From positions 288,001-352,000 of the forward strand of contig JAHQJS010000004.1 in the NCBI GenBank assembly GCA_019057385.1: 64,000 bases of DNA. Direction: 5' to 3'. Source of the stretch: Candidatus Borrarchaeum weybense. Its GTDB lineage: Archaea > Asgardarchaeota > Sifarchaeia > Borrarchaeales > Borrarchaeaceae. Numbering within the stretch: the stretch's first letter is position 1; each line of letters begins with the position of its first letter. This document shows, in pieces, positions 49,946 through 63,085 of the stretch. The translations under genes were made by a program, and so were the position numbers. The notes below the pieces were generated by a model. The model had not been told where the DNA came from, made no database searches, and worked only from the letters and a program-made list of their open reading frames with translations.

Positions 49946-50010
49946 AAGGTCCTCCTCCTTTTTCTAAATAGGAGTTAACTAACTTAATTTAAGATCTAAT
50001 AATAATTATA

Positions 50011-50940
50011 TTATATAGCACTTTCTGGTACGATCTTTTCAGCAAACTTTTTAGGATAAAATGCATCTAGATCTTTGTATTCTTGACCGATTCCAATAAA
50101 TACAATGGGCTTTTTCGTAACATGAGCAATAGAAATAGCAGCCCCTCCTTTTGCATCAGCATCAACTTTAGTCAGTATTGAAGCATCAATACCTACAGCC
50201 TCATTGAATTCGCGAGCTTGTTCGACGGCATCATTACCAGCAAGACTGTCTCCTACAAAGACTGTAATCACATTCGCGTCTTCGATTCGTTTAAGAACAC
50301 GAACGATCTTTTCCATCTCTCCCATAAGGTTCTTATTGGTTTGCATTCTCCCAGCAGTATCAATTAGAACAATATCTATGTTTTTTGCAATTGCATGACT
50401 AACAGCATCAAAGGCAACAGCAGCAGAATCCGAGCCATATTTGTGTTTGATTACTTTAACTCCAAGTTTGTTTGCATGAATTTCTATTTGCTCTATGCTT
50501 CCTGCACGGAAAGTATCCGATGCTGCAAGGACTACAGAAAAACCCTTTTTTTGGAATAGACTAGTAAGCTTGGCTAAAGTTGTTGTTTTTCCTGTACCAT
50601 TAACTCCTAAAAATACAATCGCTAAAGGTTGCCCCTGTTCTTTGCCTTTTTTTGCTAACTCAAAAAGATCTATACCCTCTACTTTAAGGATTTCTAGAAT
50701 TGTATTTCTTAAGGCACTATAGACGAATTTCTTTGTGCTCTTAAGACGACCTACCTTCTCACCAGTCAACTGTTGTTTCATAAGTTCTCCAATTTCAGCT
50801 GCCACGGAAAATGCAACGTCGTTTTGTATTAATATTATTTTCAAAGATTCAAGAACATCCTCTAACTGGTCTTCACTCAATGTCTTCGATGATATTTTTT
50901 CTGTAAAACCCTGAAGACCACTTCTTAGTTTTTCAAACAT
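50011..50940 (-). CDS. ftsY: SRP receptor FtsY; first ~38 codons apparently supplied by the integrated element
   Basis: GVNGTGKTT, DTFRAG, DTAGR, TKVD; start at MFEKL by homology with the fragment at 61407. Confidence 0.95.
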   Translation of the reverse strand: MFEKLRSGLQGFTEKISSKTLSEDQLEDVLESLKIILIQNDVAFSVAAEIGELMKQQLTGEKVGRLKSTKKFVYSALRNTILEILKVEGIDLFELAKKGKEQGQPLAIVFLGVNGTGKTTTLAKLTSLFQKKGFSVVLAASDTFRAGSIEQIEIHANKLGVKVIKHKYGSDSAAVAFDAVSHAIAKNIDIVLIDTAGRMQTNKNLMGEMEKIVRVLKRIEDANVITVFVGDSLAGNDAVEQAREFNEAVGIDASILTKVDADAKGGAAISIAHVTKKPIVFIGIGQEYKDLDAFYPKKFAEKIVPESAI

Positions 50941-51309
50941 AGATGTTTTCTCTCCGAGCATATGAAGCATTAAGGATTGATTGATTGCTTGACGCAAGTT
51001 TGTGACATATCAATCAGGTTTTTTAATATACGTTTTGATTCCGAATTTGAAAACTCAATTTTATCGAATAATTATTCAAAGAACATTTTAACACGCATTC
51101 ATCTCTTGTTGAATTATAAAAGATGTTATATCTGATGAGGATGTCTTACCTATTTTATAGTATTCTTGAGCAATAGTATGAATATATGTCGAATAGCTTT
51201 CTTTTATAAAAAATGTGAAAAATGCCCTTTTTCTCTTATATCAGATAATAATTAAGAATAACGAAAGGAGTGAGATGATCAGCACAAAACCGATCATCTC
51301 CTTTTGGAT

Positions 51310-51475
51310 GATTTCAGCTGCGACAGAAAGCGCGACATCGTTTTCGTGGGTATGACATTTTTCGTCCCTTGCGAGTCATCCGTCCCCTTCGATGAGGCGT
51401 CGGACCTCTCAGGTTCAGTCTCATGCACAAGAACGTGTCCCTCATGTTTTATGAGGAACATACCGCCTTGCAACT
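51310..51475 (-). ncRNA. putative guide RNA 1: structured scaffold (51346-~51475) plus 3' guide matching ftsY (51310-51345)
   Basis: Scaffold repeated at 52452-~52585; TATA box TTTATATAGG at 51496-51505; guide is 28/36 identical to 50791-50826. Confidence 0.75.
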
Positions 51476-51541
51476 CATATATTCGCTTACAAAGACCTAT
51501 ATAAACACCACTCTTCATAACAAGGACTCCCAGTTCCATAC

Positions 51542-52354
51542 TTACATGTCCTCTTTCAGGTCATCAAGATAAAGGTTGACCATTAATAAGAGATGGTTTT
51601 TCAAAGAAGAAAAACCATAGGTTAGTGCTTCGTTGATTTTATCAAGGTCATTGCATTTTCGAATAAAGGTATAAAGTGCAAAAGGAGAGTATTGGCGCAG
51701 TTCTATCTCTCTTTTTAACGCGTTGAAATCTATCTCTTCTGATTCTGCTACATGATAACGTGAAAATGCAGTCCATCTAAATTTTCGAGAAATCATTGCA
51801 GACCATCTATCATAATTTTGTAGTAAAGAAAGCAGAGGAAAGTCTTTTTCATCTATAGTATAATTATGATGGTTCTTTGCGAGCTGATAGACTTCGTCAT
51901 TAATTATATCAACATCAGTATAAATTTTGCTTGGATGTCGATCAGTGCTTACAAAATCATGCAGGAGCATTGCTATAATTAACTTTTCCTGCACATCTGA
52001 GAGTTTTGGAAGTTTCTTACGTATGTTAATCTTTCTCGAAATATAGAGGGGTTTTTTCTTGAATTCACTCACAGAAGTCCAAAAGATTTGTCCCACCCCC
52101 TCACATGTATAACTCCCGACACTATCAATAGCTAGTGCTTTTTCAAGTTTATGTTCTGGAACGATGAACTCAACATTACCAAACCATGCCCTAAAGGTCA
52201 TTGGAGCACGTCTTTGTCCTACCGTTAATTTTCCGAATACCCTGGGACGACCATTTATAGTCATCGCACCAACATCGGTAACTCCAAAATGTCTACGCCT
52301 TGAAACGATAGGAGTTTTTGTATAACCAATCAATTTAAAGTATTTTTGTGACAT
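51542..52354 (-). CDS. reduced Cas5-like RAMP fused to HD domain
   Basis: N-terminal strand + TP, Gly-rich VGSYTCEGVGQI loop; then LLHD, HH and D residues of an HD hydrolase. Confidence 0.65.
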   Translation of the reverse strand: MSQKYFKLIGYTKTPIVSRRRHFGVTDVGAMTINGRPRVFGKLTVGQRRAPMTFRAWFGNVEFIVPEHKLEKALAIDSVGSYTCEGVGQIFWTSVSEFKKKPLYISRKINIRKKLPKLSDVQEKLIIAMLLHDFVSTDRHPSKIYTDVDIINDEVYQLAKNHHNYTIDEKDFPLLSLLQNYDRWSAMISRKFRWTAFSRYHVAESEEIDFNALKREIELRQYSPFALYTFIRKCNDLDKINEALTYGFSSLKNHLLLMVNLYLDDLKEDM

Positions 52355-52417
52355 TTATTCCCCTCATTTGAGGTTTTACCTCCTCTTTAAACAAAAGAGA
52401 GGAGATATAAACCTTGC

Positions 52418-61921: not shown

Positions 61922-62158
61922 TTATATTCGTGATAATTCAGAAGTAAGGCTCTTCAGTACAGGATCGGTAATATCTTCATCTTGAATTTGTGAAATTTCA
62001 GTTATTTTTATGAATTTTCTTGGAACTTTGTGTTTACTCCCTATAAGGGATAAAACGTTTTCAATTGCATGGGTTTCTTTTAGGGCTTTGATCTCTTTGG
62101 CGAATGGGATCTTTTTACTCTTTGCTCTATAGACGCCCTTAATCCGAAATACTGACAA
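61922..62158 (-). CDS. rpl18a: 50S ribosomal protein L18Ae/LX (eL20)
   Basis: FRIKG, FAKEIKA, GSKHKVPR; TTG start after a GAGGTG SD. Confidence 0.9.
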   Translation of the reverse strand: MSVFRIKGVYRAKSKKIPFAKEIKALKETHAIENVLSLIGSKHKVPRKFIKITEISQIQDEDITDPVLKSLTSELSRI

Positions 62159-62404
62159 TAAAAACACCTCTATTTTCAGTGAAACCTTTTGTGCACATCT
62201 TAACATATTATCTTTTAACCTTTTACATTTGGGTTGAGAATTTTTGCTTTGTAAAAAAACTCTTGCTGTGAAAATTGGTTTTTAAATTGCACAATGAAAA
62301 GCTTAATAATTTTTATCCTAGCAAGGTCATTCATCTTGCAAAGACTTCGTTCTGAGTGATATTTATCTGGCGAGAGTCCTTTCTGAGAGTAAAATGGATT
62401 AACA

Positions 62405-63085
62405 GTGTACCTGGTGAACTGTGTGGTTATTGTTCAGAATAACTTTAATGGAATCGCCTCAGTCGGCATAATCTCACTGGCTACTGATAGTTATGTATTG
62501 GTTCCAAGAAACCTTCCAAAAAGAGTAGTCAATAAGCTACATGAGGTATTTGCTGCGCCAATTATCAAAACTTCAATTTATCAATCGCATCTAATTGGAA
62601 TATTAGCCGCTGGTAATAAATTTGGTCTATTAACTCATTTTCTTTCTGATGATGATGAGATTGAATATCTTAAGAAGGAAATTGGTATCCCTGTTGAAAG
62701 AATGAAAAGTAAACTAACTGTCGGAAATTGCATTCTTGCTAATGACAAAGGCGCAATTGCTGCGGATGAATTTGGTAAAGAAGACATTAAGCAAATCACT
62801 GATATTCTCAATGTAGAAGTTTTGCAAGGAAAGATCGTCAATTCATCTTTAATCGGATCACTTGGAGCAGCAAGTAATGAAGGCGCTATGGTGCACCCAT
62901 TAGCTACCGAAAAGGAATTAGAATGGATTAGCGAAGGCTTGAAAGTACATTCTGATATTGGGACCGTTAACAGAGGTGTTCCATATGTCTCAACAGGAAT
63001 CTTAGTTAATTCACAGGGGTGCGTTACAGGCGAAGAGACTACAGGTCCTGAATTAGTAAGAATCTCACAAACATTCGCACTTTAA
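62405..63085 (+). CDS. eif6: translation initiation factor 6 (aIF6)
   Basis: GNCILANDKGA, VHP, GTVNRG, TTGPEL. Confidence 0.95.
   Translation: MYLVNCVVIVQNNFNGIASVGIISLATDSYVLVPRNLPKRVVNKLHEVFAAPIIKTSIYQSHLIGILAAGNKFGLLTHFLSDDDEIEYLKKEIGIPVERMKSKLTVGNCILANDKGAIAADEFGKEDIKQITDILNVEVLQGKIVNSSLIGSLGAASNEGAMVHPLATEKELEWISEGLKVHSDIGTVNRGVPYVSTGILVNSQGCVTGEETTGPELVRISQTFAL

Follow-up and report, generated by a model that had tools for sequence, protein, structure and literature searches.

A mobile ARAMP element within archaeal ftsY, its putative guide RNA and a rescue copy of the gene's start

How can a mobile element reside inside a gene that its host probably cannot do without? The question is raised by ftsY in Candidatus Borrarchaeum weybense, in a stretch of 64,000 nucleotides that we analysed as a whole (hereafter the window, to which all positions refer). 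The working gene lies on the reverse strand (50940 to 50011), encodes 309 amino acids with an SRP54_N and an SRP54 GTPase domain, and is single-copy in the genome, where the sole other match is the SRP54 paralogue (28%). For its closest FtsY proteins, the sources give the names Sifarchaeia or Promethearchaeota. On the same strand lies pfdA, the prefoldin alpha gene (a 141-aa ORF, 61895 to 61470), which is the native left flank of ftsY. It is followed directly by a native ftsY leader (61408-61469) and by a dead fragment (61407 to 61294), the displaced codons 1-38 of the native gene. The native promoter, too, is stranded there. An earlier note on this DNA had described this fragment as ending in an early stop, and translation confirms it, with three extra sense codons before the stop. 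The note had also given 23 of 38 amino acids as identical between the fragment and the start of the working gene, and CTTCATA...GAGAGAAA as common to both leaders. Both statements hold on re-reading the sequences, and the identity is 70/114 at the nucleotide level. Among 22 conserved residues other than Met, 16 are encoded by different codons (dN 0.28), so that synonymous sites between the two starts are saturated. An excess of synonymous recoding, suggested by an NG pS of 1.0, was rejected, since 16/22 by codon count is ordinary saturation.

The two starts differ in their affinities. The fragment matches the P0003 protein at 38/38 amino acids and the L044 allele at 111/114 nucleotides, and its homology to native ftsY ends exactly after codon 38. 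Compared with L059, the nearest native allele, identity is 92.9% across the left flank (pfdA to codon 38) and 94.8%, by nucleotides, in codons 51-236 of the working gene, i.e. 93-95% in the flanks against 67% for codons 1-49 of the working gene. The latter is made of three parts, all on the reverse strand: element-borne codons 1-38 (50827 to 50940), a version of codons 39-50 to which we return below (50792 to 50826), and the native body (50011 to 50791). It is preceded by an element-borne spacer, the putative promoter and leader (50941 to 51266), which is 96% and 84% identical in two other occupied sites (L023 and L022, respectively) and dissimilar to native leaders except for an SD-like GAGAGA. 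When the region 50827-51344 was searched as DNA in 400 genomes of the phylum, we found just the homology of the ftsY start and chance matches, and the junction of the window's ftsY occurs in no other representative genome of this set.

Sites without the element show what was there before. Six such sites or pairs of sites, in genomes of the same genus and on metagenome contigs (G004, G002, L042/L043, L044, L059 and L060), have an N-terminus of the fragment type with pfdA directly upstream. None carries the working type, which is the outcome on which the earlier note had staked its claim, and pfdA and ftsY are contiguous in G004 and G002. A contig from a run of another study (X5) is an exact empty site, joining position 50825 to 61294 across a single C and skipping 10,468 bases. 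Hence, about 10.5 kb (50792 to 61293, reverse strand) are missing from empty sites, with the right boundary between 50806 and 50792. The occupied site in turn lacks the native codons 39-50 (35 bp). Two details given earlier must be amended. The empty site does not read CTTCTT|CAAAAC but CTTCTT|GAAAAC, and the element-borne part of ftsY does not end at 50827 (codon 38/39): it extends beyond codon 38, as far as codons 44-50 (in the window to between 50806 and 50792, codons 45-50), which places the junction within codons 39-50 or at their end. Residues Q39 and F44 are found in all four occupied ftsY alleles and in no native one.

One might suspect that a duplicated gene start is the product of an assembly chimera or of a collapsed mixture of strains. 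The genome is indeed a metagenome bin with 7% estimated contamination, and related strains coexist in the same samples. Yet, Logan contigs of the source run, built from the same reads by a different assembler, bridge both junctions with 0 differences. The same right junction is found in independent samples (L022 and L023), three independent samples in all hold it, and an independent scaffold (L061) contains a whole second occupied site. The duplication is therefore not a chimera, an explanation whose probability is negligible and that we regard as refuted for practical purposes. Among the contigs examined there were no joints of circles or excisions, though contigs cannot show that these are absent.

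Where does the working N-terminus come from? Empty sites carry the fragment type, so the working type is foreign, and the comparisons support the view that it travels with the element. It is nearest to the sister lineage P0017/L021 (30/38 amino acids, dS 0.5), where this type is native and stands behind pfdA. The leader is unlike that of L021, so the captured homology begins at the ATG. In a tree of the ftsY body, the working-type N-terminus occurs in two separate clades, P0001/P0002 with P0003/P0004 and P0005 with P0014 (support 99/99). In every case it stands behind one and the same succession of scaffold, guide, hairpin and leader. The body of the window's gene groups with the F-type natives P0003/P0004. 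Occupied alleles have a dN/dS of 0.19 among themselves. The earlier proposal that the element carries a captured and diverged ftsY N-terminus is thus supported both by the empty sites and by the body tree, and element-borne rescue of ftsY, by a leader together with codons 1 to about 49, is very probable.

Rebuilding a target gene from a diverged end carried by the element is a hallmark of integrative elements. Phage 21 and e14 rebuild icd in E. coli in this way, and archaeal elements at tRNA genes do likewise. There too the native gene end is left as a fragment and the diverged copy keeps the gene whole. A tyrosine or serine recombinase, maybe encoded elsewhere, might therefore have recombined an attP containing the 5' end of ftsY with an attB in ftsY. 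This is at odds with several observations. No ORF of at least 75 aa in the insert matches a recombinase or transposase family, the junctions vary in position and have no common att core, and the target has lost 35 bp. Moreover, unlike in phage 21 and e14, it is the 5' end of the gene that is replaced, with its promoter, and an RNA of the element matches the lost target. We consider classical integration very improbable.

The gene content of the insert identifies it, as far as domain and motif matches go, as an ARAMP cassette, a kind of element already in print. ARAMP (Asgard RAMP) systems are CRISPR derivatives of Asgard archaea that have no array and whose Cas1 is distinct (Makarova et al. 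2020 CRISPR J, summarised in PMC8730458 and PMC12669027). A Cas7-like RAMP protein (52609 to 53418, reverse strand) matches PF03787 (RAMPs, E 4e-6, 27.9 bits, cut-off 22.1) and has eleven paralogous copies in the genome. A protein of 270 aa (51542 to 52354, reverse strand) resembles a fusion of a Cas5-like RAMP with an HD nuclease at the level of motifs: in 9 paralogues, a G-rich loop and H..HD..H..NHH..YD do not vary, and there was no Pfam match and no useful match in the ESM Atlas. A third gene (53765 to 57775, reverse strand, likely start ATG at 57754) encodes a helicase-Cas1 fusion of 1336 aa. It matches DEAD (E 3e-26), Helicase_C (E 1e-14) and, at residues 958-1234, PF01867 Cas_Cas1 (E 1e-7, 31.9 bits, cut-off 22.3). 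By eye, the EG, H and D/E motifs of Cas1 are visible in the translation, and a phmmer search of the Cas1 domain against PDB gave nothing relevant. The protein has six or more paralogues in the genome, and homologues at 90% and 82% are found on other contigs.

To the left of these genes lies variable cargo on the forward strand. A TPR protein of 746 aa (58229 to 60469, Pfam TPR families) ends in what looks by eye like a D...ExK motif of Mrr-like nucleases (Mrr_cat E 0.007, below cut-off), and an HhH-GPD-like ORF (60641 to 61207) matches PF00730 with an E of 4e-4, below the curated cut-off. The left region including this last ORF is not shared with the element of L061. We found no CRISPR array in the 64-kb window (TRF) or in 50,000-62,000 (repeat search). 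The resemblance with ARAMP thus extends to the Cas7-like RAMP, the Cas5-like/nuclease partner, a divergent Cas1, which in this element is joined to a helicase, the lack of an array, the Asgard host and a PD-(D/E)xK-type nuclease motif nearby. The accounts of ARAMP in PMC8730458 and PMC12669027 call the mechanism enigmatic and suggest only links to mobile elements; unlike what we describe here, they include no RNA component, target, insertion site or rescue of a target gene.

The missing 35 bp of ftsY reappear, in slightly different form, within the element. Between the Cas5-like gene and the spacer lies a structured RNA of roughly 120 nt (copy A, 51346 to 51470, reverse strand), and a second copy with a core 95% identical is found further upstream (copy B, 52452 to 52575, reverse strand). 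There are about 23 copies of this scaffold in the genome, with a covarying 5' hairpin, and no Rfam family matched in 50,000-62,500. Predicted pairs include 130 G-U against 3 A-C, a tally that favours the gene-sense strand and is biased by the structure having been predicted for that strand. It follows that the tail has mRNA sense and should pair with template DNA only. Downstream of copy A the 35-nt tail (51311 to 51345, reverse strand) corresponds in mRNA sense to native ftsY from codon 39 position 1 to codon 50 position 2. It begins at the exact point where the stranded fragment stops, and it is followed by a terminator-like hairpin with a T-rich run (51267 to 51301, reverse strand), read from the sequence, whose conservation extends to L022 and L023. 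Other scaffold copies, too, have comparable hairpins after their tails, and the tail always stands between conserved scaffold and hairpin; an exact-pattern scan of JGI metagenome contigs for the hairpin after the guide gave no match. For copy B, the 3' tail (52380-52451) is similar to sequence found upstream of the RAMP gene (53454-53506, 27/32). A scaffold-like stretch of 35 nt at 61230-61261 belongs to a separate small repeat, also found at C3:20289-20365.

We compared the tails with the genome by ungapped scans, blastn-short being too insensitive for interrupted matches. The ftsY tail fits native alleles better than the copy beside which it stands. It matches L059 at 33/35 positions, with mismatches only at positions 12 and 24, L044 at 31/35 and the working copy at 28/35 (differences at 1, 9, 12, 15, 16, 21 and 24). 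Elsewhere in the genome no match exceeds 24/35, so that the match to ftsY is unique. The tail is identical in the window and L023. In L022 and L061 the guide matches the native allele of its own host at 28/35; apart from those at sixth positions, its mismatches are at 1, 2, 4 and 15. The version of codons 39-50 carried by the element mismatches the guide at 5-8 positions outside the multiples of six. The nucleotides 5' of three definable protospacers are CTT, ATT and TTT, and those of rescue copies ATA/TTA and ATC. This gives some support to NTT as a candidate flank motif, in three sites where the placement of guide starts is partly free. The recoding of the protospacer itself would be a clearer basis for immunity than the change of flank.

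The genome contains further copies that allow these features to be compared. At a PRC-barrel gene, a second element (C3:98503 to 91548) repeats this geometry. The guide of this element matches the native sequence of G004 at 31/33 and the working copy at 26/33, its 30-nt match, counted in the ATC register, has mismatches to natives at positions 6 and 18, and its left junction lies 1-2 nt before the protospacer. In a copy on C6 the scaffold directly abuts the native flank and ends about 10 nt away, and G004 provides the empty site. A copy at C4:423777 has its boundary at the 3' end of the guide; the closest native sequence matches about 26/34 by eye, the gene looks truncated and rescue is not evident, and on account of this fit and this truncation we did not count it in support of the geometry of guide and rescue. 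The tail of a pyrD copy (C3:65746) matches the working gene at about 27/28 by eye, which seems to fit regulation better than cleavage. Several copies in the genome are without the helicase-Cas1 gene.

Does the tail choose the target, or is it a leftover? The cassette might be a passive island without target choice that spreads by homologous recombination through pfdA and ftsY, its tail being the relic of an old junction without present function or with a regulatory one only. Much in the locus would be expected of such an island: in the native gene the tail (39-50) takes up where the fragment (codons 1-38) leaves off, which is what a simple insertion long ago would produce; the guide keeps the codon frame, and where the guides of different elements differ they do so at codon-like positions, as expected of a relic of the gene; the right boundary is not fixed but shifts within codons 44-50; and the pyrD tail fits regulation. 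Exchange with a diverged donor by general recombination should, however, bring SNPs of that donor into the flanks. We could compare an occupied (L061) with an empty site (L042) of the same study: the left 3,111 nt are 100% identical up to codon 37, and direct comparison shows identity on the right as well, beginning at codon 44 position 2 and extending over at least 110 nt. L022 is identical to L042 from codon 50 onward over more than 1.2 kb. Hence, no donor SNP is found in 3.1 kb on the left and more than 1.2 kb on the right. A passive island is also hard to reconcile with the recurrence of the geometry in an element whose gene and guide are both unrelated, with the constant position of the tail, and with guides that fit natives better than rescue copies and differ from the nearest natives at every sixth position. 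We regard it as quite unlikely.

A related idea is that the guide is displaced native DNA, or that the 35 bp are a target-site duplication around a rescue segment of 484 nt. This was rejected, because the flanks of L022 and L061 are 100% identical to the empty allele and yet the guide differs at 7/35 positions, and because the same guide sits in the window and in L023. Choice of the target by a guide RNA is, from these comparisons, the likely alternative to a leftover.

How would the element then have entered ftsY? It could have been integrated by the helicase-Cas1 protein, with a ribonucleoprotein marking the 35-bp target and Cas1 joining the element's ends near the edges of the protospacer. 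The intervening target would be lost, the rescue segment would be part of the inserted DNA and homologous recombination would be unnecessary. In spacer integration Cas1 makes staggered joins across the CRISPR repeat. The domain is present here with its motifs, the junctions lie at or near both edges of a target roughly as long as a CRISPR repeat, the flanks of L061 and L022 equal the empty allele right up to the junctions, and copies at many sites imply real transposition at some stage. But Cas1 chemistry should duplicate the target, and there is neither a target-site duplication (35 bp are deleted) nor, in a repeat search, terminal inverted repeats at the ends of the element. The left ends of the elements of the window, L061 and C3 are unrelated sequences, so that an integrase would have no conserved end to hold. 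The right junction varies, being at codon 44 in L061 and at codon 49 in L022, and the helicase-Cas1 gene is missing from several copies. Integration of this kind is rather unlikely. L022 and L061 differ by just 9 nt, all in codons 37-49, and in two elements compared, one of them that of L061, the left-hand cargo differs and the junctions are at most 3 nt apart. These near-coincident junctions and the differences confined to codons 37-49 hint that the right junction has undergone recombination. That the element was copied by recombination, and not joined by Cas1, is our tentative preference, held with a little less than even confidence.

The best reading of the locus, and one we hold to be somewhat probable, is that of a selfish element directed by a guide, whose rescue copy of its essential target mismatches that guide. 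The scaffold RNA with Cas7 and Cas5-HD would recognise the template strand of a native, empty ftsY beside an NTT-like flank and break the DNA. The occupied allele, lacking a matching target, would be immune. Empty alleles would be converted by break-induced copying from the occupied allele, with the sequences from pfdA to codon 38 and from codon 50 onward as homology arms, and Cas1 may assist or serve moves to new sites. The element would be hard to lose because ftsY is probably essential. The overall effect would be "cleave and rescue", or homing, in a natural setting. For break-induced copying, a cell of this organism would have to hold two alleles, through polyploidy or exchange of DNA. RNA production, cleavage and movement are steps that we infer, all from comparative evidence.

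Parts of this arrangement are known from other elements. IS200/IS605 elements follow a logic of retention by cleavage. As in these, with their TnpB/IscB proteins and omega RNA/reRNA, a scaffold RNA at the end of the element would have a 3' guide given by the adjoining target, which is literally so in the C6 copy. In both there is no target-site duplication, and insertion parts the short flank from the target so that only empty sites would be recognised. Here, however, the proteins are Cas7, Cas5-HD and helicase-Cas1 instead of a RuvC nuclease and TnpA (Pfam finds no such domains), the elements are 7-10 kb long, and in the copies at ftsY and the PRC-barrel gene the guide lies inside the element with a rescue segment after it. 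A review of the TnpB family is given in PMC10691335. Tn7-like CASTs that carry homing spacers (for archaeal Tn7 elements, see bioRxiv 10.1101/2025.07.27.667033) are likewise mobile, with CRISPR-derived effectors and a guide that matches the occupied chromosomal site. In contrast to them, the present element has no TnsA/B/C or TniQ (TnsB, TnsC and TniQ are absent from the Pfam results), CRISPR repeat, 5-bp duplication or offset of 50-70 bp. Its junctions lie at or within the protospacer, which is lost, whereas CASTs insert at a fixed offset and leave the target intact. CASTs avoid breaking genes, whereas the ftsY element breaks and repairs its target gene. A casposon would differ by its family B DNA polymerase, of which there is none among the element's ORFs, by its terminal inverted repeats and by a target-site duplication of ~14-15 bp.

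The closest parallels in logic are homing endonuclease genes in introns and inteins and the synthetic cleave-and-rescue or home-and-rescue gene drives, where a conserved site in an essential gene is the target, the occupied allele is functional and uncuttable, and empty alleles are converted. Unlike in homing endonucleases, recognition would here be made by RNA, and gene function would be kept by replacing the gene's start, not by splicing. Synthetic drives are man-made analogies, not relatives.

For annotation, these results mean that ftsY of this genome is a functional chimera and that the short ORF after pfdA is a relic. More generally, the locus shows that a mobile element can live inside a single-copy, probably essential gene. 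On the reading favoured here, a diverged promoter and 5' coding end taken from another lineage would double as immunity to the element's own guide. The locus gives ARAMP a testable mechanism, with a defined RNA, a 35-bp target and a candidate flank motif, and it offers natural resistant and sensitive alleles of one gene. It is possible, at somewhat less than even chances, that ARAMP systems at large are RNA-guided selfish elements, instead of or beside having a role in defence, whose non-CRISPR scaffold RNA directs Cas7 and Cas5-HD to a conserved part of a host gene and whose guide-resistant rescue takes the place of that part and of the gene's start, so that occupied alleles are protected and empty ones are cut and converted. 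If so, they would be a new class of RNA-guided element made from class 1 CRISPR parts, and a natural prokaryotic counterpart of engineered cleave-and-rescue drives, in which cleavage of an essential gene is coupled to a recoded rescue. This would provide a function for the long-unexplained array-less Cas1/RAMP systems of Asgard archaea.

The window carries two starts of ftsY. The working gene (50940 to 50011, minus strand), whose start the earlier note had quoted correctly, encodes a 309-aa FtsY with SRP54_N and SRP54 GTPase domains. The second start (61407 to 61294, minus strand), with pfdA (prefoldin alpha; 61895 to 61470, minus strand) directly upstream, runs for 38 codons and ends in three unrelated codons and a stop. 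As that note had claimed, the two share 23 of 38 residues (70 of 114 bases), and their leaders have CTTCATA...GAGAGAAA in common. Synonymous sites between them are saturated, since 16 of the 22 conserved non-Met residues use different codons (dN 0.28). There is no second ftsY in this genome (4.18 Mb, 8 contigs), where the sole other match is an SRP54 paralogue; the closest FtsY proteins bear Sifarchaeia/Promethearchaeota (Asgard) names.

The working start is foreign, because native genes have the fragment-type start and identity to the nearest of them, L059, drops precisely there: the window and L059 agree at 92.9% between pfdA and codon 38 and at 94.8% in codons 51-236, against just 67% in the working gene's codons 1-49. 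Uninterrupted ftsY with a fragment-type start lies immediately behind pfdA in two genomes of the same genus (G004 and G002) and in the metagenome contigs L042/L043, L044, L059 and L060. The stranded fragment itself is identical to P0003 (38/38 aa) and matches L044 at 111 of 114 nt. None of these natives has the 50940-type start, which upholds the proposal of a captured ftsY N-terminus carried by the element. The arrangement is not an assembly artefact. Read support for both junctions, a check proposed in the earlier note, comes from Logan contigs of the source run, made from the same reads by a different assembler, which bridge each with 0 differences (records covering 50300-51432 and 57730-62000). 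Furthermore, a contig from another study's sequencing run (X5) joins 50825 to 61294 via one C, with a depth of ~44-49 over the flanks and zero over the insert. This is an empty site; one had been predicted as CTTCTT|CAAAAC, one base off from the CTTCTT|GAAAAC that the gene strand reads.

Working-type starts occur in three other public FtsY proteins, P0002, P0005 and P0017. Upstream of the first two (loci L023 and L022) lie a scaffold, 35-nt tail, hairpin, spacer and leader as in the window, at 96% and 84% nt identity, respectively. In the third (L021; 81% aa identity) the working-like start is native, directly behind pfdA, and agrees with the window's working start at 30 of 38 residues (dS 0.5, omega 0.28). 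Since its leader is unrelated to that of the element, the captured homology begins at the ATG. In a tree of the FtsY body (residues 39-309), P0002 and P0001, which also carries the working start, group with the fragment-type natives P0003/P0004, and P0005 groups with P0014, likewise a native of fragment type (support 99/99), so that one foreign start sits on two host ftsY backgrounds. With a dN/dS of 0.19 among occupied alleles, this start is under purifying selection.

Pairs of empty and occupied alleles locate the junctions. L022 and the empty L042/L043, from one study, are 100% identical from codon 50 to the contig end (>1.2 kb) and 51-79% identical before codon 50. A full second occupied site, L061, whose helicase-Cas1 is 90% identical to the window's, matches L042 on the left over 3,111 consecutive bases with 0 mismatches, to ftsY codon 37; on the right, by direct comparison, identity resumes at codon 44 position 2 for at least 110 nt. 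Between the window and its nearest native, differences end after codon 45. This puts the left junction behind codon 38 (window) or codon 37 (L061) and the right one within codons 44-50, and the occupied allele lacks native codons 39-50. The element-borne part of ftsY had been placed at 50827-50975; foreign codons 1-38 stand, and the extent was too short, as the part comprises the leader and codons 1 to ~49. The junction comparison and a repeat search of 50,000-62,000 revealed no target duplication, shared core or terminal inverted repeat at the insert ends. L022 and L061, both occupied and from one study, differ by 9 bases in 2.3 kb, all in codons 37-49 (39 nt around the recoded protospacer). 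This cluster marks either a hot spot of recombination or conversion, or diversification of the sequence that the guide targets.

Products of the insert are a 1336-aa DEAD-helicase/Cas1 fusion (PF01867, E 1e-7), a Cas7-like RAMP (PF03787, E 4e-6) and a 270-aa Cas5-HD protein, in which a glycine loop of RAMP type is joined by invariant HD-type motifs; the left-hand cargo is variable and includes a TPR protein bearing a weak nuclease motif that is Mrr-like. The set is the ARAMP system known from Asgard archaea, described as array-less, type III-derived, joined to a distinct Cas1 and enigmatic in mechanism (PMC8730458; PMC12669027). There is no CRISPR array in the 64-kb window (TRF) or in the repeat search of 50,000-62,000. 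Integrase elements are known to rebuild a target gene with a diverged end of their own, as is seen here at ftsY, but a classical integrase is less likely: among the insert's ORFs of 75 aa or more there is no recombinase, transposase or polymerase. TPR-repeat genes point away from helicase-Cas1, in divergent transcription, in three related elements (window 58229-60469, plus strand; L061 7352-10000; C5:125159-126124 of the same genome); they are unlike in length and sequence, and the window's gene has a D...ExK motif of nuclease type at its end (Mrr_cat E 0.007). The 4.2-Mb genome bears a very large load of this element family, with six or more helicase-Cas1 genes (one of them split), 11 RAMP genes, ~11 Cas5-HD paralogues and ~23 scaffolds (contigs C3, C4, C5, C6, C7), and many scaffold copies occur in the same-genus G001, G003 and G004.

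The scaffold, a ~120-nt structured element, follows the RAMP gene and again the Cas5-HD gene; its ~23 genome copies have a covarying 5' hairpin, and no Rfam family matches it (50,000-62,500 scanned). The RNA most likely has the polarity of the genes, because their strand gives the better fold (-10.1 against -6.0) and predicted pairs include 130 G-U against 3 A-C, a tally biased toward the gene strand, for which the structure was predicted. A 60-80-nt repeat whose GAC-N7-GTC hairpin resembles that at the 3' end of the scaffold is found 32 nt inward of the left junction (61199-61260) and in one other genomic place (C3:20289-20365); a contig of run X5 leads from it into C3-like sequence.

Directly after scaffold A, the last in the insert, comes a 35-nt tail (51345 to 51311, minus strand), followed by a hairpin with a T-rich run. 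It equals native ftsY codon 39 position 1 to codon 50 position 2, beginning exactly where the stranded fragment ends and ending about where native sequence resumes. The tail matches L059 at 33/35 (mismatches 12, 24), L044 at 31/35 (12, 24, 28, 30), the window's working copy at 28/35 (1, 9, 12, 15, 16, 21, 24) and the next best site anywhere in the genome at 24/35. Q39 and F44 (tail positions 1, 15, 16) are found in 4/4 occupied alleles and in no native one. Tail, native target and mismatched rescue copy correspond. Being in the mRNA sense, the tail cannot base-pair with the ftsY mRNA, and its possible DNA partner is the template strand. The scaffold B tail (52380-52451, minus strand) resembles a stretch just upstream of the RAMP gene (53454-53506, minus strand; 27/32). 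The same resemblance recurs in the C3 and C5 copies and in three on C4, and it could mean autoregulation, or simply a promoter or leader common to both genes.

A 7-kb copy on C3 (~98503 to 91548; helicase-Cas1 73% identical) interrupts a PRC-barrel gene, whose start codon and leader are new. At the element's left end, G004 native upstream DNA maps to 1-2 nt before the protospacer, and native sequence is back where the tail finishes on its 3' side. This tail matches the native gene of G004 at 31/33 and of G002 at 30/33, against only 26/33 for the resident copy. Over the 30 nt counted in ATC register, it mismatches G004 at 6 and G002 at 6 and 18. In the register of the ftsY tail each sixth position is a codon wobble base, and class 1 effectors leave every sixth base unpaired by the Cas7 backbone. 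Multiples of six account for all four distinct mismatches to nearest natives at the two loci (chance ~1 in 16 if only wobble varies), which is suggestive and no more. Passive spread of an island by general recombination is less likely. The bases before three protospacers are CTT, ATT and TTT, and those in rescue copies ATA/TTA and ATC (three sites only). A C6 copy, without helicase-Cas1 and with an empty site in G004, has native flank adjoining the scaffold directly, like omega-RNAs of IS605-type elements. The relation is looser elsewhere: the L022/L061 guide matches its own host's native allele at only 28/35, and guide, native and resident are ambiguously related at C4:423777. A reduced copy (L051, C3:64937-66982; RAMP and one scaffold, no Cas1 or HD protein) precedes a dihydroorotate-dehydrogenase-like gene (pyrD); its tail is not mismatched to the resident gene's first 10 codons (~27/28, by eye), and it may serve gene regulation or use proteins supplied in trans. 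On L062 (ENA ERZ23499174 scaffold_287), an 82%-identical helicase-Cas1, a RAMP and a single scaffold lie ahead of a TatD gene, with a tail resembling a non-coding stretch ~110 nt further on; the sample of L062 also holds the empty ftsY site.

At ftsY, then, an element has inserted, a 35-bp target is lost, and an element-borne diverged promoter and 5' end keep the sole copy of this probably essential gene whole. We propose that the RNA, with Cas7 and Cas5-HD, would recognise native ftsY DNA, that the element would enter empty alleles at a break, and that occupied alleles would be immune because target and flank are both changed. Entry may proceed by break-induced copying from an occupied allele, which we favour because the right junction shifts within a stretch of partial homology, different elements have unrelated left ends and a duplication is absent. 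Direct joining of element to target by Cas1 is a live rival, with Cas1 present in the element and the flanks perfectly clean. Guides matching the element's own site are known from CASTs and TnpB elements. ARAMP was known as a gene set, and in the literature searched we found no description of an array-less class 1 derivative combined with a non-CRISPR scaffold RNA bearing a native-target tail and a guide-mismatched rescue of the interrupted gene. What is new here are the pairs of empty and occupied sites, the corrected junctions, the relation between native target, guide and rescue copy, and its repeat at a second gene.
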